Below are positions 52,150-58,892 of a DNA stretch of 64,000 nucleotides, piece by piece. The DNA comes from Candidatus Babeliales bacterium (GTDB lineage: Bacteria; Babelota; Babeliae; Babelales; Vermiphilaceae). The stretch is taken from assembly GCA_963743635.1 (NCBI GenBank), contig CAVUQO010000002.1, positions 32,001 through 96,000 of the forward strand. Reading direction: 5' to 3'. The position numbers and the translations under genes are program-made. Position 1 is the stretch's first letter; each line of letters starts with the position of its first letter. The notes under the pieces were generated by a model. It searched no databases. It saw only the letters and a program-made list of their open reading frames with translations, and was not told the origin of the DNA.

Positions 52150-52770
52150 CTATGCCTGCGTAGAGCAAAAACATTTCCCAGTTTTAAATGCTTTGGTTCG
52201 CTGGTCCAACTTGGCATGTCCTGCCACCAGTGCATAACTGAAGGCTATGTCTTCGCATGCAGTCGGCCTGCCAGCATCATTTCTTGGAGAAAAAATTCTG
52301 TTTTCCTTGAGGCAATGGATAAATTCCATTTCTGCCTTAGATGCTTCTAAAGCCTTTTCATTCACTAGGTCCTTAAGTTTTTCTTTAGTAGTTTGAAAAA
52401 TATATGGCCTTGCATATTGCCCTGCGGTAAGTACTGCAGCAACTTGTCCTACGGTAGTTGTTGGAGCTATCCATGCAGCAACTTCAATAACACCAGCGAC
52501 GACCACACTAGCAACTTGACGTGGCGTGTCGGATAGGAGAATGTGGGGTATGGTTACCAAATGGAAAATTTTTTCGGTTGTCGATAACTTTTGAATATAT
52601 TTCTCGAATGGCGATAACCCTAATTCTTTAATAATAAATTTCTCGATTGGCAGTAACTCGTTCGGTAGAATTTCAAGAGAATATGGGCGATTACAACCGC
52701 AATTTGCTGCTTCACCCCCAGCATACAAATTTGCACTAAACAGCAATGATAGAAGTGTTCTTTTTAACAT
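52150..52770 (-). CDS. Secreted protein, Cys...GxPTAC paralog family
   Basis: Signal; CLKENRIFSPRNDAGRPTACE. Confidence 0.75.
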   Translation of the reverse strand: MLKRTLLSLLFSANLYAGGEAANCGCNRPYSLEILPNELLPIEKFIIKELGLSPFEKYIQKLSTTEKIFHLVTIPHILLSDTPRQVASVVVAGVIEVAAWIAPTTTVGQVAAVLTAGQYARPYIFQTTKEKLKDLVNEKALEASKAEMEFIHCLKENRIFSPRNDAGRPTACEDIAFSYALVAGHAKLDQRTKAFKTGKCFCSTQA

Positions 52771-52773
52771 ATT

Positions 52774-53310
52774 TTAACCCCGATAAGCGTCTTTGAAGGT
52801 GTTTATCATATCATTGCATGCTGCTTTGCCAGCCACTGCAGTAAATGCACTCGCTAGTCCTTCACATGCCGTCGGTATGCCGGCATTGTTTTTTGGCAGC
52901 TGTGCATTTTTCATAAGACAATCTCGAAAGGCATTCTTTGCCTCCCAGATTTTATTGCGTTCGCCAGCTGCCTTTAGGCTAGCCTTTCGCGCCTCACTGG
53001 GATAGCAGTAATCATAGAAGTCTCGTCCCGCAGAGGCAAAGAATACAGCGGCGTAAAGACAGATAGCTATGGATATGCCGGCACTAAGACGATTGCAATA
53101 CAGGGTAACCTTTTTCTGTGTTTCTTCGTCCCATTCTTCTGATGCCTTTATTATGTTTGGAATTATTGCAGCCACTACTAACGTTGCTACCCCAAGCCCT
53201 ATTGCACCATGCGATGATGCAGTGTGGTTAGATAATGTAAAACTTGCTGATTGCGGTGCTGCATGTAAATTTGCACTAAGCAGCAGTAATAAAAATGATT
53301 TTTTTAACAT
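52774..53310 (-). CDS. Secreted/membrane protein, Cys...GxPTAC paralog family
   Basis: Signal; two TM-like helices; CLMKNAQLPKNNAGIPTACE. Confidence 0.75.
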   Translation of the reverse strand: MLKKSFLLLLLSANLHAAPQSASFTLSNHTASSHGAIGLGVATLVVAAIIPNIIKASEEWDEETQKKVTLYCNRLSAGISIAICLYAAVFFASAGRDFYDYCYPSEARKASLKAAGERNKIWEAKNAFRDCLMKNAQLPKNNAGIPTACEGLASAFTAVAGKAACNDMINTFKDAYRG

Positions 53311-53313
53311 ATT

Positions 53314-54006
53314 TTAATCCTGATAAGCGGTTTTGAAGTTTGTTGTCATTTCATTGAGTGCTGCTTTACCAGCGACCAGAGTATACTGGCGCGAAAATTC
53401 ATCACACGCAGTTGGGCGACCCGCCCAATTCCTTGGCGTATGCGCATTTTTTATAAAACAATTTCTTAATCCTTGCTTTGCATCAAGATATTCATTTGTT
53501 TCACGATCTGTTTTGATGCGTGCCTTTGTTTCTTCATCTGGATAATAGCTTCTATATACATCGTTTGCTGTGGAGGCTAGTTGAGATATGCCATAAATAG
53601 CAATACCTGCACCAAGATATTTTAATGCTGGTGCCAATATTTCAGCTGCTTCACGTCCAAGCATCGGAGAGGCTTCTTTAACCTTATCGCCTAAGGTACC
53701 AGCCGCTTGGTTGCCGAGTGTTGGATCAATGTTCTGAGCGCCGTTAGCTATTCCTTCTTTAATCTTCTCCCCTATTTCCTTCGCTCCTTCACTACCTAGC
53801 AATGCAGATACATCCTTCACGCTTTGGGTATGTGTAGTAAGCACTTGATCTATTTCCTGCACCATCGCAACCCCTGCAGCCTTTGGTGGTGAGAATGCCG
53901 CCTTGAATGCGTTCCAAAAATCCTCAACCCTTCCAGCCCTGCTGGAAGTATGCGTAGTAGCAATGATAATGGCTGTGTATAAAAAAAATTTCTTAATATT
54001 GTTCAT
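53314..54006 (-). CDS. Secreted protein, Cys...GxPTAC paralog family
   Basis: Signal; CFIKNAHTPRNWAGRPTACD. Confidence 0.75.
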   Translation of the reverse strand: MNNIKKFFLYTAIIIATTHTSSRAGRVEDFWNAFKAAFSPPKAAGVAMVQEIDQVLTTHTQSVKDVSALLGSEGAKEIGEKIKEGIANGAQNIDPTLGNQAAGTLGDKVKEASPMLGREAAEILAPALKYLGAGIAIYGISQLASTANDVYRSYYPDEETKARIKTDRETNEYLDAKQGLRNCFIKNAHTPRNWAGRPTACDEFSRQYTLVAGKAALNEMTTNFKTAYQD

Positions 54007-54031
54007 AACGTTTCCCTATTGAGCTATATAG

Positions 54032-54550
54032 TTACTTTTGTAAATTTTCAAGTTCAGTGTCTAATGCAATCAATTGTTGAATATGAATTTCATATTTTTT
54101 AACAAGGCTTTTTAGTATTGCTTGCTCAATAGCGTATCGTATTGCATAGAATTTTAATGATTGAAATTCGTCCTCTTGAAACAGACCGTTTACAAGTATT
54201 CCTTCAACGCTTTTTTTGTTTTTGTAAGTCATCAAAGCATTCGTATAAAAGATATCGAGCTCCTTATAAAGCCGAGCTTCTTCCTCCTGTGCTAATGCAT
54301 TGCCATCATTTTTTTGACCCAATGCTCGCATTCTTTTATCGATGATTAGTCTAAAAACATCATGAGATTCTGATTTGAGTGAAGAAAGCAACTTGTCTTT
54401 TTCAGCAATAAGCGCGCCAAGCTTAGAGAGTTCCAGCTGTTTTTGAAAAATATTTTCTTCCATCCGTTGTATGCGCGTATCAACAGTATTCCTGCCCATT
54501 GCTGCAATAGGCACGAAGAGCATTGTTAAAAATATGGTTTTATAGTTCAT
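54032..54550 (-). CDS. Secreted coiled-coil protein
   Basis: Signal, heptad-rich N and C termini. Confidence 0.7.
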   Translation of the reverse strand: MNYKTIFLTMLFVPIAAMGRNTVDTRIQRMEENIFQKQLELSKLGALIAEKDKLLSSLKSESHDVFRLIIDKRMRALGQKNDGNALAQEEEARLYKELDIFYTNALMTYKNKKSVEGILVNGLFQEDEFQSLKFYAIRYAIEQAILKSLVKKYEIHIQQLIALDTELENLQK

Positions 54551-54596
54551 GATAATCCTTGAGTGTTAAGTATTGTTTTGATCGTTATGCAATTGA

Positions 54597-55088
54597 TTAC
54601 CACCACGATGTGGAGAATTGCTTTCTGTATTGATTGTAATTAGTTGTCAGTTTATCTGCCTCTTTCTTTCCCCCAAATATTTTGAGCACGTGTACTATTT
54701 CTCCGCATGCAGAGGGAAGCCCTGATCGCGCTCTTTTGGAAGTGTTCTTGTTTTCCATAAGGCATTGCTTTAATGCCTTTTCTGCGGTAAGCAAACCATA
54801 TTGGTTAGCAACGTCATGAGCCTCTATTTTTTCTTTCTCATTGGGGAAATTAAGAGATTTTATTTCTTGCACTATCAGACATATTCGAACAATAAGGCCA
54901 ATATATGGCTCGGCCTCAGCCCCCTTTTCAACTGCCTTTCCAATGATTGCCTTGAGGCCAGATTTTGCCGTCTCGTTAATTGCTGCATCAGCAGCCTGTT
55001 CAGTCATTGCTTTAAGTTCTGGTTGTGCGAAGGAAACGAAAACGGAATATAAGAATATCCGTTTAATATTTTGCTTGAATAATGTCAT
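54597..55088 (-). CDS. Secreted protein, Cys...GxPSAC paralog family
   Basis: CLMENKNTSKRARSGLPSACG. Confidence 0.7.
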   Translation of the reverse strand: MTLFKQNIKRIFLYSVFVSFAQPELKAMTEQAADAAINETAKSGLKAIIGKAVEKGAEAEPYIGLIVRICLIVQEIKSLNFPNEKEKIEAHDVANQYGLLTAEKALKQCLMENKNTSKRARSGLPSACGEIVHVLKIFGGKKEADKLTTNYNQYRKQFSTSWW

Positions 55089-55188
55089 TGGGGTCCCTTT
55101 CCCACTAGTGTTTATGATCATATGATTGATCAGTGTATTTTATACGTAATTGAAGATGCTTGAGCTATTCAGAAATCCATAATGGATA

Positions 55189-55212
55189 TAAGCCCCGGGC
55201 TTCCGGGGCTTA
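55189..55212 (-). terminator. GC-rich hairpin ending the RHH-precursor-small membrane protein unit
   Basis: taagccccgg/ccggggctta. Confidence 0.7.
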
Positions 55213-55222
55213 TTCTAAATGC

Positions 55223-55432
55223 TTAGATTTTCTTGGAACTGGCATTATAAGTAATATTTTTAAGAACTAATCCCATGAATAAGCCTATAACGCATGCGGG
55301 ATAATAGTTGTATTGCCAAGGCAATGGATCGTTGAATCCTAAGGAGCGCATAATGTATACAACGCTTACCATTACACCAACGATGGTCATTGTTTGATAA
55401 AACTGTTCTACAAAAATATTAAATAATTTCAT
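55223..55432 (-). CDS. Small 2-TM membrane protein (immunity-like)
   Basis: 69 aa, two hydrophobic helices, 9 bp after the precursor gene. Confidence 0.65.
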   Translation of the reverse strand: MKLFNIFVEQFYQTMTIVGVMVSVVYIMRSLGFNDPLPWQYNYYPACVIGLFMGLVLKNITYNASSKKI

Positions 55433-55441
55433 GGTTAACCA

Positions 55442-56104
55442 TTACGGTAATGGTAAGACTAAACCAAGGCCGAACGCACTTACGGATGCTGCTTCAATAA
55501 AAGCCACAAGACCGGTAGTTCCACCAGCAGTTGCTATAGCTCCTGTTGCTAAGCCTGCCGCTGAGGTAGCTGCAGCAGATGTGCCAATAGCAGCGGCTGT
55601 TGCGCCTGCCGCTAAAGTACCAGCGCCGGTTCCAGCGATCGCAACGGTGGTGCCTGCATTAAGAGCGGCGCCAACCGCAACGCCCGCAGTTCCACCGCTT
55701 GCCACTGTGGCAGCCGCTACTGTAGCAGCTCCTGCGGTGGCTGCAGCGCCAACACCGCCCCAACAAAGAGATTTGGTTATCCAATACAAAGCATTCGCGG
55801 TAACTGGACCACCGCCATTAAGACGACCGCCAAGGCGAAGCGCGTAGTCATTACTATTTTCCATCTTATTGAGCTTTAAATAAGCACCAGTTGTAGTAAG
55901 TTGTGCAAGCCGTTCTTCTGATATGCCTCTCAGCTCTTTATCGATGAAAGCGCGTTGAATTTTAGTTGATGTGTTTTCTGTTTCCACAAAGAAGTCATTG
56001 CCTTTGTGGGTGAGTCGCATTGCATTCATTCCTGAGAATGCAAGCATAGATAAGGCTAGAAAGCCTGTCCTGACACAGGAAGGGCCTTTCTTGATTTGTA
56101 ACAT
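55442..56104 (-). CDS. Precursor-like protein: signal, pro-domain, LRLGGRLNGG, Gly/Ala/Thr-rich hydrophobic C-terminus
   Basis: Translation in ORF track. Confidence 0.75.
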   Translation of the reverse strand: MLQIKKGPSCVRTGFLALSMLAFSGMNAMRLTHKGNDFFVETENTSTKIQRAFIDKELRGISEERLAQLTTTGAYLKLNKMENSNDYALRLGGRLNGGGPVTANALYWITKSLCWGGVGAAATAGAATVAAATVASGGTAGVAVGAALNAGTTVAIAGTGAGTLAAGATAAAIGTSAAATSAAGLATGAIATAGGTTGLVAFIEAASVSAFGLGLVLPLP

Positions 56105-56133
56105 ATGTTAGTCCGATATGATTAAACGTACTG

Positions 56134-56313
56134 CTAAACGTCCAATTCATTGGGTAATTTCGTACTCAACGATTGAACTTTTCCTTCAATCGCTTCAATT
56201 ACTAGATCTCTCATACTTTTTTCGACCATTACACTTTTGATTTTCAGCTTCTTGTGCAACTCTAGAGGCAAAGCAATAGTGAGACGAGTCGATTCCTTCT
56301 TGCGTTCCATCAT
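56134..56313 (-). CDS. Ribbon-helix-helix (ParG/CopG-like) DNA-binding protein, 59 aa, not in ORF track
   Basis: Manual translation MMERKKESTRLTIALPLELHKKLKIKSVMVEKSMRDLVIEAIEGKVQSLSTKLPNELDV*; AAAGGGGAG RBS. Confidence 0.8.
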   Translation of the reverse strand: MMERKKESTRLTIALPLELHKKLKIKSVMVEKSMRDLVIEAIEGKVQSLSTKLPNELDV

Positions 56314-56549
56314 TACTCCCCTTTTATGTAATCACGATTATTAGCATATACGTAAATAAATAAGCCGCAAGCAATAAATAAGACTGGATTTTCTTAGTAA
56401 TTTTATAGGTTCGGTTTTTAATCATGTGTGACGCATTGTCTCATAGAGAACGATTTATAAGAGATAATACTCATGGATTGTGTAAGGCCTTATTAATCCA
56501 ATGTTTATAATGCGCTAGCTCTATGTATTTAAGCCCTTTTTGAGTGATT

Positions 56550-58892
56550 CTATGGGGTTTGTTGTTTGGGGGCAGCAGGTTTAACTGGTTTTTGCTGCCC
56601 TTGAATGTTGGAGTATTCGATCCATGGGGTATCAGGGCCTGTTTCAAGCCAGATTCGAGTATTTAAAGAGCGCGTTTGAGGATTGAATGAGAGCTTTATC
56701 CCTTTAAGATCATAGTCTTTCAGTGATTCAATATATTTCTTAATATTCGCGTGGGAATAATTTTTGTTGTACACGCCCGTTGTATCCTTTTCTATGTGAT
56801 CGAGGGCGTCAACAAGGATACTGGTGGCTATATATGCCTCAAGTGAAAAAGTATCGTAATCATATTGATTGACATCCATTTGTTCACGATACTCTTGTAC
56901 GATGGGAAGGTTGCTTAAGCGAGGATTGGGTACAATGGCAGTCAATAAAATAGTGATTCCCTGACGTTTTGCGAAATGACGAATGGATTTTTCTCCCAAA
57001 AATGAATCGCTAAAAATAATCATATCGGTTAGATTTGCAGTGCCCAATTGCTGTATGAATTCTCGTGCTGGTATGGGGCTGGCAAAGAATCCGATAGCCT
57101 GAATACCTTCTTGTTTTAGAGCCTCTACTTGTTTCTTAAAATCTAAGGTTCCTGGTAAATAAGGCAAACCCAAGCATTTTGAGATTCCCTTTTTTTGCAG
57201 ATATGCGCGTGAAGTTTCAAAGCTTATGCGTCCGAATTCAGTATCTTGATAGAAGAAAGCAAATTTATTCATCATTTTTTGATTAATAATGTGATCAAGA
57301 AGAACATTTACTTCATCTTCGTAGGATGGACGGTAATTGATCAGGCCGTGCAATTCTGGTTTGAAAAATTCTTCTCCTCCTGTGACTGGAAAGAGGGTAA
57401 GTATTTTATTTTGTTTTATCAAATCAGTATAGGAGTCAAGAGTTAGGGCGCCAATAGGTAATAAAATGACGTCAGCATTATTTTCATTGGTTAGTTCTAT
57501 GACGTTTTTTCGGGCAAGTACAGCGTTATAGTTATCGTTATAAGTGGTGAGAGAAAGATGCAGCGTGGTTAACTCTGTATTACTGGCGTTTGCTTGTTGA
57601 ATGCGTGCGGACATACCGCGCATAACGCATTGACTGATAACGGGAAGTCCACTAATTAATCCTAGGGTGCTACCAATATTAAAATTTTTCTCAAAAGTGT
57701 TTGCACGGGAGAGAATTATACCGGTTAAAAGATTAAATGCTTCATGTTTTTTAAACCCTCGTTGATTTGATATTTGTTGGTTATACAAAACGATGGCGCT
57801 GTCTTGTATAGTTGATCCTACAGTAATAATACCAAATGCATCATAATCAAAACCAAAAAATTTTTGATGAGCCATATTGGGTGATGATAAGATTGACCAA
57901 GCTGTTGTCCCACGATCCTGTTCTAAAAGACCAAGACCAAGTAGGTCACGTGGTTCACCCGAAACGGCGCGCATCTCGTGCATCGAATTTTCAGATTTAA
58001 TAATGACTTCAACTGAGACTTTTTGGCTTGATGCTTTTTTTTGCGTAATGTCATGGTAGGTTAAGGTATCTCTGGGGGGCTTATCCCAAAAAGATCCATA
58101 TGCATCTTCATTGAGTTCGGGAGAATCAAAGCCTTCAGCTGAAATGCGAATGAAGGTATGCGGACTTTTGAGTGTACTGATATAGAATGCAAGAGGAAGT
58201 GTATTAAAAAAAGCATCAATCGATGCATTTAAGGGAATTTCGCCTGTCATGGGTTCGCCTAAGCGGGTTAAAAGTTCTCGTTTGAGTCCGTAATCCAGCC
58301 ATTTATTATTATCTTCACTGAGGCCGCGCACCCAGATCATTTGGTCGGGATTGCGATACAAAAGAGTCATGAGCGTTGTCAGCATTTCTAAGGTATATGC
58401 AGATCGGTTGAGTGTGTCTCCATACACAACGAATAAATAGTCTTTTTTTATGATTTCGAAATTGTTGTTCAGGATGCCCTGCTGCTCGAGCCACGTGAGA
58501 TCGCGCGTGAAAGAATGTAGACATCCTTCAAGATTTCCGCAGATCACAATATGAGTTGGATAGGAGAGCTGCAGCAGTGCAACCTTGCGCCCGGATAAGT
58601 CAGCTTTTTTTCGTTGTTCTATAACCTCCTGGAGTCTTTTTTTGAATAATGCGATATCCCAGAGGGGTTGCGGACTGAGGCCCCACGAGCGAAGGGTTTT
58701 GGTGAGCATATTGGGCTTAAGGCTTGCCTGATATGACGTATAGTCAGGATCATTCCAATCTTCATCATCACTGTGTGGTGCTTCGGTGTGTTGAGCTACA
58801 TAGTTTTGAAGATCACTGAGGGTGTTAAACGGCATAAGCGTTATATTGCAACAAAGGAGGAGTGTAGAAAAAATATATTTTGCATTGAGCAT
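56550..58892 (-). CDS. Fusion of a degenerate PPP-phosphatase domain and a LivJ-type periplasmic binding domain
   Basis: GNLEG/GDTLNRS/RGLSE align with GDTHG/GDCVDRG/RGNHE; IGSTLGL, NDNYN, FFYQDTEFG, SLEAYIA. Confidence 0.8.
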   Translation of the reverse strand: MLNAKYIFSTLLLCCNITLMPFNTLSDLQNYVAQHTEAPHSDDEDWNDPDYTSYQASLKPNMLTKTLRSWGLSPQPLWDIALFKKRLQEVIEQRKKADLSGRKVALLQLSYPTHIVICGNLEGCLHSFTRDLTWLEQQGILNNNFEIIKKDYLFVVYGDTLNRSAYTLEMLTTLMTLLYRNPDQMIWVRGLSEDNNKWLDYGLKRELLTRLGEPMTGEIPLNASIDAFFNTLPLAFYISTLKSPHTFIRISAEGFDSPELNEDAYGSFWDKPPRDTLTYHDITQKKASSQKVSVEVIIKSENSMHEMRAVSGEPRDLLGLGLLEQDRGTTAWSILSSPNMAHQKFFGFDYDAFGIITVGSTIQDSAIVLYNQQISNQRGFKKHEAFNLLTGIILSRANTFEKNFNIGSTLGLISGLPVISQCVMRGMSARIQQANASNTELTTLHLSLTTYNDNYNAVLARKNVIELTNENNADVILLPIGALTLDSYTDLIKQNKILTLFPVTGGEEFFKPELHGLINYRPSYEDEVNVLLDHIINQKMMNKFAFFYQDTEFGRISFETSRAYLQKKGISKCLGLPYLPGTLDFKKQVEALKQEGIQAIGFFASPIPAREFIQQLGTANLTDMIIFSDSFLGEKSIRHFAKRQGITILLTAIVPNPRLSNLPIVQEYREQMDVNQYDYDTFSLEAYIATSILVDALDHIEKDTTGVYNKNYSHANIKKYIESLKDYDLKGIKLSFNPQTRSLNTRIWLETGPDTPWIEYSNIQGQQKPVKPAAPKQQTP

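Follow-up and report, generated by a model that had tools for sequence, protein, structure and literature searches.

A three-gene unit on the minus strand of a Candidatus Babeliales genome, studied in a window of 64,000 nucleotides (the whole stretch of DNA that was analyzed), probably encodes a Sec-exported polymorphic membrane toxin, its cognate immunity protein, and a ribbon-helix-helix (RHH) regulator. The three open reading frames (ORFs), all on the minus strand like every feature described below, were confirmed in the ORF listing as genes for an RHH-like regulator of 59 aa (56134..56313), a protein of 220 aa (55442-56104), and a small protein of 69 aa (55223..55432), separated by gaps of 29 nt and then 9 nt. 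A perfect 11-bp hairpin with a 4-nt loop (55188..55213), found by inverted-repeat search, starts 10 nt past the stop of the 69-aa gene and closes the unit; it was not scored as an intrinsic terminator because the terminator scan detected no T-run after it. The sequence-only reading of this DNA, which had described a tight minus-strand unit with a terminal hairpin, was accurate as to this layout. Judged by sequence comparison, all three ORFs are genuine genes and not chance ORFs, because the 220-aa and 69-aa proteins have homologs and a 95%-identical version of the RHH gene lies elsewhere in the genome. The locus is also present in DNA runs from peat and soil metagenomes, and no RNA run was listed as containing it.

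By its sequence, the 220-aa protein is a member of a large family unnamed in both Pfam and NCBIfam, with 28 homologs in one search and 1230 cluster representatives in another. Neither this protein nor its 69-aa neighbor matched Pfam, NCBIfam, PHROGs, or PADLOC. Pfam run over all 134 family members and NCBIfam over 146 gave single weak hits only, and a PDB sequence profile search returned nothing below an E value of 0.39. The best ESM Atlas score (0.77) serves as a lead only, and three matches in Photorhabdus were set aside as chance, lying in a spurious 43-aa ORF (one of the three was inspected). In order, the protein has a signal peptide, a small domain with a predicted beta-barrel fold, a junction at which G-P is invariant, and a Gly/Ala/Thr tail. 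In line with the leader that had been suspected, residues 1 to 28 (56021..56104) read by eye as a Sec-type signal peptide, and a hydrophobic 12-mer precedes the domain in 109/134 family members.

The head domain (residues 29 to 96; 55817..56020) has five predicted strands and one helix in an OB-like order. AlphaFold2 modeled it with a pLDDT of 93 to 97 across residues 31 to 90 of the full protein, and the domain folded alone (residues 26 to 100) reached 83.7, in the order b-b-b-a-b-b. Three of its residues are widely kept, namely, F38 (123/134 members), D55 (111/134), and G73 (118/134). The pro-domain had been expected to drift among homologs; instead, it is a conserved and confidently folded domain. 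The best fold match had a Z score of 3.4, none of 48,161 chains reached Z 5, and Foldseek gave no match for the domain at an E value of 1e-3 or better. Weak fold matches included cold-shock, SubB, and HIN domains, with no ubiquitin-like chain among the matches listed. That a domain should be conserved and confidently folded, yet without a fold match, was weighed against the toxin reading.

The tail, running from G99 to P220, is 122 aa long, and the translation bears out that it contains just two charged residues, K111 (codon at 55772-55774) and E204 (55493-55495). Both are essentially invariant in the family (133/134 and 134/134 members), as is, to a lesser degree, the C-terminal P218 (119/134), the window protein ending in P-L-P. 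Across the 134 members, the roughly 92 residues between K111 and E204 have a median G+A+T+S+V share of 84%, and 114 members carry 0 to 2 charged residues there. Helices are predicted at residues 99 to 135 and 196 to 216, in blocks with a pLDDT of 73 to 88. We regard residues 101 to 220 (55445..55804), a Gly/Ala/Thr-rich helical stretch, as the candidate membrane toxin module.

Several other readings were considered and set aside. A type IV or Flp pilin would have a short basic leader and a Glu at +5, and neither was seen by eye. GlyGly-CTERM/rhombosortase signals have about 25 aa after the glycines, whereas 120 aa follow here. The possible lipobox at C114 has a Leu preceding the Cys. Head-to-tail cyclization, considered because both tail ends are conserved, is a remote idea for which no supporting gene was seen.

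The head and tail meet at GGGP (residues 97 to 100; 55805..55816), which is a module junction, a recombination breakpoint, and a candidate maturation site. It had been proposed to test whether an RLxGG-G motif within LRLGGRLNGG (residues 89 to 98; 55811-55840) and a C-terminal LPxP are conserved. The glycines and prolines are indeed kept (G97 in 131/134 members, G98 in 128, G99 in 134, P100 in 125, along with P218), but LRLGG is not: R94 is found in 91/134 members, while positions 89 to 93 and 95 to 96 vary, with A in 63, S in 26, and L in 14 of 134 members at position 91 and G in 49 and V in 40 at position 93. One paralog in the same genome reads RLRGGG at the junction.

Comparative evidence supports the earlier suggestion that a hydrophobic cargo is joined at this Gly junction. 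The window locus and an own-genome paralogous cassette, L002, share 72 to 100% DNA identity from about 56447 to 55820, and identity then drops from 87% to 30 to 50% exactly at the GGGP codons. Upstream of this point, the RHH genes of the two loci are 95% identical; downstream of it, the 69-aa partner and its 59-aa counterpart at L002 have no similarity by blastp (E up to 0.01). Relatives show exchanges in both directions. Two proteins (P0008 and P0009) have heads that are only 27 and 21% identical to that of the window protein and tails that are 66 and 64% identical, while four others (P0007, P0010, P0011, and P0013) have heads that are 82, 73, 72, and 69% identical and tails of another class, which share 41, 30, 34, and 37% identity with the window tail, all of these tail values being inflated by low-complexity composition. 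Moreover, metagenome contigs from four runs break at 55809, where the break corresponds to the own-genome paralog, and at 55819, two positions that bracket GGGP. The head domain and the tail thus recombine exactly at the GGGP codons.

Each tail type also has its own downstream family of small membrane proteins. A hydrophobic ORF on the same strand follows 36 to 39 of 50 family genes, compared to 101 to 197 of 786 control ORFs from the same genome; under a stricter rule, the counts are 25/50 and 34/786, the controls in both cases being raw ORFs and not curated genes. The partners fall into clusters that track the tails. All eight members of a 2-TM cluster of 64 to 76 aa and all five of a 170- to 211-aa cluster lie downstream of long tails, and all eight members of a 43- to 48-aa cluster and five of the six in a 30- to 43-aa "WYWYE" cluster lie downstream of short tails. 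The 69-aa protein has three homologs (72 to 84% identity), two hydrophobic stretches, predicted to be helices, and the C terminus SSKKI. It aligns colinearly with the 2-TM family found downstream of long-tail genes, and its match to an HMM of that family is weak (E 0.008, in a four-sequence test). Position and co-variation with tail type support the earlier assignment of this 2-TM protein as a cognate partner, and we treat it as the candidate immunity protein.

Partner genes also occur apart from intact toxin genes. Members of the partner families were located at 30 places in 25/261 genomes, 14 of them directly downstream of a match to the 220-aa family. Five inspected loci have a partner gene and no family ORF in the flanks examined. 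Remnants were found as well: two loci contain internally deleted copies of 50 and 53 aa, each beside two partner genes, and another (L004) has a 52-aa C-terminal fragment.

Insight into how the tail might be released comes from relatives that carry a self-cleaving pretoxin HINT domain. In one genome (G103), a 282-aa protein consists of a signal peptide, a PT-HINT domain, and the family tail. The domain (PF07591) was detected over its full profile at an E value of 2.2e-13 (51.1 bits, with a cut-off of 27.7) and ends in IHN, the GP of the tail follows immediately, and an overlapping partner gene lies downstream. PF07591 was found in 12 of 26 hits, where HINT replaces the head, ends in HN, and stands directly before the tail; one such relative joins HINT to a short-type tail, and NCBI names one "polymorphic toxin-type HINT domain-containing protein." These relatives retain only G/D-P at the junction, not R-x-x-G-G. 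Because the HINT domain ends where the tail begins, the idea of a maturation site is supported. Release at GGGP in the window protein is argued by analogy, since neither HINT nor any other Pfam domain was detected in that protein; by this analogy, its tail is probably released at the G-P junction, and alternatively, the head domain may stay attached to the tail. A signal peptide combined with HINT corresponds to a Sec-route design in which a releasing peptidase precedes the toxin, as described in the portion of Zhang et al. 2012 drawn on here (PMC3482391).

The steps that we infer (export, cleavage of the 220-aa protein itself, damage to a membrane, a protective role for the partner, the kind of cell targeted, and regulation) would fit together as follows. 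The 220-aa protein would leave the cytoplasm through Sec, with the head domain (residues 29 to 96) serving as a carrier or pre-toxin module. At the G-P junction, where the modules are joined, the tail would probably be freed. The 120-aa tail would be the active part; its weakly hydrophobic helices would form a bundle, insert into the inner membrane of a bacterium from the periplasmic side, and damage it, with K111 and E204 pairing within the membrane or lining a channel. The 69-aa two-helix protein, in the inner membrane of the producer, would neutralize the cognate tail, and the RHH protein would repress the operon.

This arrangement resembles the polymorphic toxins of the Sec/T2SS route, as covered in the part of that literature used here (PMC3482391). 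In both, a signal peptide and a conserved N-terminal part precede a C-terminal module that is swapped at a constant position, the next gene downstream is immunity-like, and other loci contain orphan immunity genes and remnants of toxins; 12 relatives also share the PT-HINT domain right before the module. The window family differs in being very small (about 150 to 340 aa) and without RHS or filamentous repeats, in a candidate toxin that is a nonenzymatic Gly/Ala/Thr helical membrane module with no Pfam model, and in its usual head, which is a small OB-like domain and not a known trafficking or pre-toxin domain. Within the same portion of that source, the listing of polymorphic toxins has one pore-forming module, Tox-WTIP, with motifs unlike the window tail (PMC3482391).

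Other membrane-active systems offer partial parallels. Pore-forming colicins carry their carrier domains first and their membrane-active domain, with a hydrophobic Ala/Gly-rich helical hairpin, last, and colicin immunity is provided by a small inner-membrane protein specific to the type of pore domain; the build of the window protein and its partner can be likened to these. Colicins differ in their far greater size, in their release by lysis proteins, and in having receptor and translocation domains that are known. The likeness is without a sequence or fold match, as whole-model searches gave generic helix pairs only (receptor helices at Z 6 to 6.7 and ATP-synthase c subunits at Z 4.7 to 5.2). 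Class II bacteriocins and microcins likewise have a Gly-Gly before a hydrophobic peptide rich in Gly and Ala, with a gene for a small membrane immunity protein after it. The window family also calls to mind the glycine-zipper contact-dependent bacteriocins CdzC/CdzD of Caulobacter and their immunity protein CdzI, where, in the part of the source considered here (PMC5380434), the toxins are small, very hydrophobic, rich in small residues, and damaging to the inner membrane of the target, and immunity comes from a small inner-membrane protein of the same operon. CdzC (86 aa) and CdzD (84 aa) carry RTX-like secretion signals and depend on a type I secretion system according to the same part of that paper (PMC5380434), while the window family, likened to them by composition only, has a Sec leader, a folded head, and a tail of 60 to 200 aa.

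As far as was searched, the family is limited to Candidatus Dependentiae/Babeliales, bacteria living inside protists. It is present in 85/261 genomes of the phylum (62/189 of those of good quality), with 1 to 10 matches per genome, and the label of one homolog gives a Chlamydiae MAG as its source. Obligate intracellular life, which leaves fewer chances for bacterial rivalry, was weighed against the toxin reading. Two phage contigs also contain a family gene, a partner, and one more small ORF, and the portal and major head genes of these contigs are on the other strand; relatives of the phage-contig capsid occur in 3/261 genomes of the phylum. For the window cassette, one of three family cassettes in its genome, a prophage context was dropped because the neighbors are housekeeping genes (e.g., SHMT, EF-P, and NusB).

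We think it unlikely that the same genes form a nontoxic envelope complex, in which a K/E-paired helical hairpin would anchor the 220-aa protein, the head would be periplasmic, and the small protein would serve as a structural subunit, with possible roles in surface attachment or in the exclusion of superinfecting phages or bacteria. A signal peptide followed by a C-terminal helical hairpin at a pLDDT of 73 to 88 is consistent with such an anchor, as is the invariant K/E pair with a structural salt bridge. Also, the cassette is linked to coiled-coil and other exported proteins, and in two phage contigs it is placed as a moron, a class of gene that often encodes exclusion proteins. However, a pretoxin HINT domain before the tail in 12 relatives suits a released module and not an anchor. 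Orphan partners and deleted remnants of the large gene would be unexpected for a structural pair, and patchy presence (85/261 genomes) together with abrupt module swapping fits such a pair poorly.

It is rather improbable that the polymorphic tail is directed at the host, inserting into the vacuolar, mitochondrial, or plasma membrane of a protist while the partner protects or chaperones it in the producer. In its favor, the two-lobed hydrophobic region recalls chlamydial inclusion-membrane proteins, one homolog bears a Chlamydiae label, and these organisms live in protists and export via Sec many proteins annotated without function. Outer-membrane vesicles, which would count for it too, were seen in one isolate, as given in the part of Deeg et al. 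2019 consulted here (PMC6561590). Nevertheless, tail-specific membrane partners, orphan partners, and swapping follow the pattern of toxins used between bacteria, with protection of kin, and no dedicated injection system was linked to the cassette in the loci inspected.

A holin-like role in lysis or release is very improbable. In such a module, the small protein would correspond to a class II-type holin, and the tail would act like a signal-arrest-release (SAR) segment that leaves the membrane on depolarization. The partner is indeed small, with two hydrophobic helices and a basic C terminus, the composition of the tail resembles weakly hydrophobic SAR segments, and the cassette occurs in phage contigs. 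Also, a 174-aa protein encoded nearby has faint endolysin (E 0.03) and SleB (E 0.012) matches, far below cut-off. On the other hand, searches of Pfam, NCBIfam, and PHROGs gave no holin, endolysin, or spanin family match, the 220-aa protein is without a muralytic domain, the cassette and the late genes are on different strands in the phage contigs, and the window neighbors have housekeeping functions.

The idea that had been raised from the window sequence, a ubiquitin-like pro-domain from which cleavage at RLxGG, by a ubiquitin-type protease of the host or a double-glycine peptidase, frees a bacteriocin-like peptide, is hardly credible. It draws on real features: G97 to G99 are nearly invariant and R94 is common, RLRGGG is found in one paralog from the same genome, a cargo follows a domain of about 70 aa with R-x-x-G-G at its end as in ubiquitin (LRLRGG) and its fusion precursors, and the HINT-type relatives suggest, by analogy, that release is likely to occur at the junction. 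The likeness to ubiquitin was not supported by comparison, because the motif varies beyond the glycines, only G/D-P is left of it in HINT-type relatives, and the head has the order b-b-b-a-b-b, with a best Z of 3.4 and no ubiquitin-like chain among the matches listed, compared to b-b-a-b-b-b in ubiquitin. A host ubiquitin-type protease also finds no support, since a protein with a Sec-type leader would leave the bacterial cytoplasm by the general export route, its meeting with a host deubiquitinase being unexplained, and since Pro follows the glycines in 125/134 members and a Pro beside the scissile bond hinders deubiquitinases. The double-glycine bacteriocin route is not supported either: such leaders are 15 to 30 aa long, while the part before GG is here 98 aa and comprises a Sec leader and a folded domain, and the family conserves three glycines and a proline, unlike the leader consensus. 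The absence of a C39 peptidase noted in the island extends to the whole 1.45-Mb, 85%-complete assembly, which had no match to PF03412 or to a C39 peptidase/ABC exporter in a search that was positive in 7/14 control genomes.

A bolder form of the preferred reading, in which the toxin is exported, released, and countered by its partner, can be put forward only tentatively. It would make these cassettes possibly the first bacterial-warfare system to be described in the Dependentiae, with a new class of charge-free tail toxin, release by HINT or at G-P, specific immunity, and spread by phages. The toxin would be a Gly/Ala/Thr helical module of 60 to 200 aa in which a single Lys and a single Glu are buried, freed in the periplasm by HINT self-cleavage or, in the common form, cut at the invariant G-P that follows a small OB-like carrier domain, and phages would bear the toxin-immunity pair as a weapon for lysogens and thereby spread it. 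The portion of the Chromulinavorax paper drawn on here reports many Sec-exported proteins of unknown function and no such toxin-immunity system (PMC6561590).

Dependentiae are widespread and almost unstudied, and competition or defense inside a shared host cell is the question that such a system addresses. If the proposal is true, a function would be given to a family of more than 1000 protein clusters without a Pfam or NCBIfam name, and the polymorphic-toxin repertoire would gain a second, very different membrane-active module. Phage carriage in an intracellular bacterium would parallel other phages that arm their hosts. The compact design (a leader, a carrier or self-cleaving domain, and a toxin) is tractable in E. 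coli, and the Lys/Glu pair, invariant in a tail that otherwise has no charge, offers mutagenesis a clear target.

The cassette may belong to a larger system, since it is repeatedly linked to two further families. In the window, a linked block of five genes (52150..55121) lies downstream, encoding proteins of 174 aa (54597-55121), 172 aa with a coiled coil (54032-54550), 230 aa (53314-54006), 178 aa (52774-53310), and 206 aa (52150-52770), none of which received a family assignment from Pfam, NCBIfam, PHROGs, or PADLOC. In the same genome, all five genes of the 174-aa family adjoin two of the three cassettes, and two of three genes of the coiled-coil family are no more than about 1 kb away from a family gene. 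In other genomes (loci L005, L013, L023, L024, L026, and L027), members of both families again neighbor family genes.

Finally, the 59-aa protein supports the earlier proposal of an RHH-type regulator upstream of the 220-aa gene, the assignment coming from weak matches that are all below curated cut-offs: an Arc-like repressor PHROG (E 6e-4), ORF E73 (PDB 4aai; E 0.012), the Pfam family RH3_dom (E 0.013), and HicB (E 0.045). The region ahead of the gene (56314..56420), in which no promoter consensus was found, shares 72 to 90% DNA identity with L002 and is the likely promoter/operator. The 95%-identical copy of the RHH gene lies upstream of the cassette at L002, and at another locus (L006), a 51-aa ORF that appears RHH-like by eye likewise precedes the cassette.

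The unit consists of three closely packed minus-strand ORFs. A 59-aa ORF (56134-56313) lies 29 nt upstream of a 220-aa ORF (55442-56104), which is followed after 9 nt by a 69-aa ORF (55223-55432). The unit also has a perfect inverted repeat of 11 bp with a 4-nt loop (55188-55213), which a consensus terminator scan left unscored because no T-run follows it. The sequence-only reading had placed a ribbon-helix-helix (RHH) gene at the head of the unit; the ORF is indeed there, and its assignment comes from weak matches (E 6e-4 to 0.013), namely, to an Arc-like repressor PHROG (E 6e-4), PDB 4aai ORF E73 (E 0.012), and Pfam RH3_dom (E 0.013, below the cut-off). ORF translation confirmed the same reading's description of the 220-aa product, which has a basic and hydrophobic leader (residues 1-28), a polar stretch (29-96), the motif LRLGGRLNGG (89-98), and a 122-aa tail (99-220) in which K111 and E204 alone are charged. 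A 138-aa Ala/Pro/Val-rich ORF on the plus strand (55431-55847), antisense to the tail-coding region, is a shadow of GC-rich Gly/Ala/Thr codons; the GC content here is 0.48 to 0.52 versus ~0.37 to 0.40 alongside.

The 220-aa protein, from an assembly of 3 contigs (1.45 Mb, completeness 85%), has no match in Pfam, NCBIfam, PHROG, or PADLOC, and neither a Pfam match common to 134 family members nor an NCBIfam match common to 146 was found. A profile of 28 homologs retrieved 1,230 cluster representatives at an E value of ≤1e-3 (940 at 1e-10 and 218 at 1e-30), and the named homologs are labeled Candidatus Babeliales or Candidatus Dependentiae. Among 261 genomes of the phylum, the family occurs in 85 (62 of the 189 of good quality; 54 of 145 genera), with 1 to 10 matches per genome, frequently in tandem. 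One 182-aa member, P0200, which lacks a leader as called, is labeled Chlamydiae bacterium (MAG); this may reflect incorrect binning or a wrongly called start, or the gene may have passed between lineages with common protist hosts.

In an alignment of 134 members, numbered on the window protein, G99 and E204 are invariant, and K111 (133 members), Y107 (132), G97 (131), G98 (128), P100 (125), F38 (123), P218 (119), G73 (118), T110 (117), and D55 (111) are nearly so. The sequence-only reading had proposed a ubiquitin-like RLxGG site and a C-terminal LPxP. Of these, the glycines at 97 to 99 and the proline at 218 are kept, but LRLGG (positions 89 to 93) is not; position 91 is A, S, or L in 63, 26, and 14 members, respectively, and position 93 is G or V in 49 and 40. 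K111 and E204 lie a median of 92 residues apart, with no charged residue between them in 50 members, one in 46, and two in 18, and this stretch has a median G+A+T+S+V share of 84%, whereas 27% of head-domain residues are charged. In a 146-member alignment covering the short-tail forms as well, the K and the E are still retained by at least 90% of sequences.

An AlphaFold2 model fed the 134-row alignment predicts a confident head domain (ten-residue block pLDDT of 93 to 97 for residues 31 to 90) with strands at 30-34, 37-41, and 46-48, a helix at 63-71, and strands at 74-80 and 87-93. In the tail, residues 99-135 are modeled as one long helix and residues 196-216 as the last one (block pLDDT of 73 to 88 for both), and the middle is helical at low confidence. 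When residues 26 to 100 were folded separately (pLDDT 83.7), the order was b-b-b-a-b-b, which is that of an OB-type barrel; ubiquitin has b-b-a-b-b-b. The head model had no match at Z 5 among 48,161 solved chains (top Z 3.4) and none by Foldseek at an E value of 1e-3 or better. Its weak fold matches include cold-shock domains, the SubB toxin subunit, and a HIN domain, and ubiquitin-like chains are absent from the matches listed. These searches fall short of proving a new fold, and the suggested beta-grasp pro-domain gains no support from the models.

Comparative analyses indicate that the head forms one module and the tail another, with G-P as the joint. Two further cassettes occur in the window's genome, of which one, L002 on contig 3, shares 72 to 100% DNA identity with the window from ~56447 through the RHH gene (90 to 100% in the gene itself; the proteins are 95% identical). 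Identity is 75 to 87% across the head-domain codons, dips in the signal-peptide codons, where there is a 21-nt indel, and drops to 30 to 50% at ~55820-55790, which corresponds to the GGGP codons (55805-55816). The small proteins downstream show no similarity by blastp at E values up to 0.01. Metagenome contigs break on the locus at 55809, which is the own-genome paralog, and at 55819. Identities of head and tail to the window protein are likewise discordant among homologs, being 27 and 66% for P0008 and 21 and 64% for P0009 but, with the other tail class, 82 and 41% for P0007, 73 and 30% for P0010, 72 and 34% for P0011, and 69 and 37% for P0013, a contrast that is clear even though low-complexity composition inflates the tail figures. 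Variant architectures include tandem head domains (L037 and L009), an insertion of ~40 aa within the head with extra polar ends on the tail (L036), and, in L055, a tail with nothing ahead of it but a leader and 45 unrelated residues.

Relatives offer a route by which the tail might be released. In a 282-aa protein of genome G103, a signal peptide is followed by a Pretoxin HINT domain (PF07591; E 2.2e-13, 51.1 bits versus a cut-off of 27.7; residues 46 to 171, covering profile positions 1 to 136 of 137) and then by a family tail. The HINT domain ends in I-H-N, directly followed by G-P and a tail with a Y-W-x-T-K motif; in a second such protein, from G105, the junction reads H-N-D-P. PF07591 is present in 12 of 26 database matches to the G103 protein, one of which NCBI names [quoted passage not shown] One HINT-type relative carries a short-type tail, and P0188, which has an OB head, shares a nearly identical tail end with the HINT proteins. 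In intein/HINT chemistry, the scissile bond follows the terminal Asn. Because the HINT domain directly adjoins the leader, this is the only bond open to it, and cleavage there would free a tail beginning G-P. Zhang et al. 2012 (PMC3482391) describe Sec-route polymorphic toxins as having a signal peptide and HINT, the releasing peptidase being placed immediately ahead of the toxin. The predicted cleavage point aligns with G99 of the window protein, and therefore the proposed "122-aa cargo" holds as an evolutionary module, its release being suggested by analogy. The window's own 220-aa protein has no HINT domain.

Hydrophobic downstream ORFs are far commoner after family genes than after control ORFs. 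With two duplicate loci and family ORFs of <140 aa left out, a hydrophobic same-strand ORF came next after 36 to 39 of 50 family genes under two wide rules (101 to 197 of 786 raw control ORFs of the window's genome) and after 25 of 50 under a strict rule (34 of 786). The partner clusters track tail type: the 2-TM cluster (64 to 76 aa; 8/8 members) and a cluster of 2-TM plus soluble domain (170 to 211 aa; 5/5) follow long tails, while the "MTQNEH" (43 to 48 aa; 8/8) and "WYWYE" (30 to 43 aa; 5/6) clusters follow short ones. At L003, L008, L012, L015, and L033 to L035, short-tail genes (ending A-T-G-P-V) precede a ~35-aa "WYWYE" ORF and a ~45-aa "MTQNEH" ORF, each with one helix; the pair may take the place that a single two-helix partner has after long-tail genes. 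At L021, L022, L032, and L037, the small partner of long-tail genes is replaced by the 170- to 211-aa protein, which has a pair of helices at its N terminus and a conserved soluble domain at its C terminus.

The window's 69-aa protein has just three close homologs (72 to 84% identity) and is colinear with the 2-TM family, with a weak profile match (E 0.008). That family occupies 30 places in 25 of the 261 genomes; as judged by eye from coordinates, 14 are directly downstream of a family match, 5 are within ~2 kb, and 11 have no family match listed on the contig. In five of seven loci inspected (G104, G107, G108, G109, and G234), the partner is an orphan, with no family ORF in its flanks. Two loci of G250 (L052 and L053) hold remnants of the large gene (50 and 53 aa) in which an internal deletion connects its start directly to its final residues, each beside two intact partner genes. 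A partner that outlasts a decaying large gene is what a protective role would predict.

Two related IMG/VR contigs (10.8 and 34.7 kb; L041/L042 and L043) carry the cassette as a long-tail gene (293/290 aa), a 2-TM partner (67/69 aa), and a small exported hydrophobic ORF (95 or 108 aa), between portal and scaffold/major head genes and on the opposite strand. PHROG scores are from the first contig only (portal phrog_156, E 1.4e-17; head phrog_1357, E 1.3e-20), the second contig's capsid and layout being judged by likeness. Next to these cassettes are small ORFs rich in lysine and a conserved ORF of 193 to 201 aa. Capsid relatives with 56 to 61% identity occur in 3 of the 261 genomes (L044 to L047; G021, G006, and G198), some split or with in-frame stops, as in decaying prophages. 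Phages infecting this phylum thus carry the cassette with them as a moron.

The cassette is also linked to two more exported families, neither of which has a family match. In the window's genome, all five genes of one, the 174-aa family, adjoin two of the three cassettes, and two of three genes of the other, a coiled-coil family, are within ~1 kb of a family gene; both recur beside the cassette in several other genomes. In the window, four 174-aa-family paralogs (174, 230, 178, and 206 aa; 52150-55121, minus) share a ~70-aa C-terminal domain that contains two Cys and often follows a hydrophobic stretch rich in Gly/Ala/Val, and a 172-aa leader-plus-coiled-coil protein sits among them.

We consider the unit to be probably a toxin-immunity cassette of the polymorphic kind, with a candidate membrane-active helical module as its toxin, because a fixed junction joins recombining modules with a releasing peptidase in relatives; because downstream partners are type specific, with orphans and remnants; and because the distribution is patchy, multicopy, and phage borne. 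The target would be the bacterial inner membrane, entered from the periplasm, since the partner would reside in the producer's inner membrane. Pore-forming colicins likewise attack this membrane from the periplasm, as does the Cdz system (PMC5380434). The toxin reading is weakened by a head domain that is conserved and well folded yet without explanation and by the linkage to two exported families. It is also weakened in that rivalry between bacteria is less obvious in obligate intracellular organisms. A non-toxic envelope or exclusion complex, set against the orphan partners and gene remnants, is unlikely but the best placed of the alternatives. An effector acting on host membranes, set against the partner's predicted place in the producer, seems less likely still. 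A holin-like module, with phage carriage on one side and the housekeeping genes that flank the window's own cassette on the other, is improbable, and a ubiquitin or double-glycine precursor, with its glycines kept but the rest of its motif not, and with a different predicted fold order, is very improbable.

A topic search of main texts on Dependentiae/Babeliales effectors and glycine-zipper bacteriocins found no description of the family, nor does the accessible part of the Chromulinavorax paper (PMC6561590) describe it. The kind of system is already known; the novelty lies in the host lineage, in the toxin module, in a head that is small and OB-like, and in a leader-HINT-toxin form that is very compact. 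Elsewhere on the minus strand, a 780-aa exported protein (56550-58892) has a clear Peripla_BP_6 periplasmic binding protein domain (E 1e-24) and a weak calcineurin-like phosphoesterase signal (E 0.027, below the cut-off), an unusual pairing.
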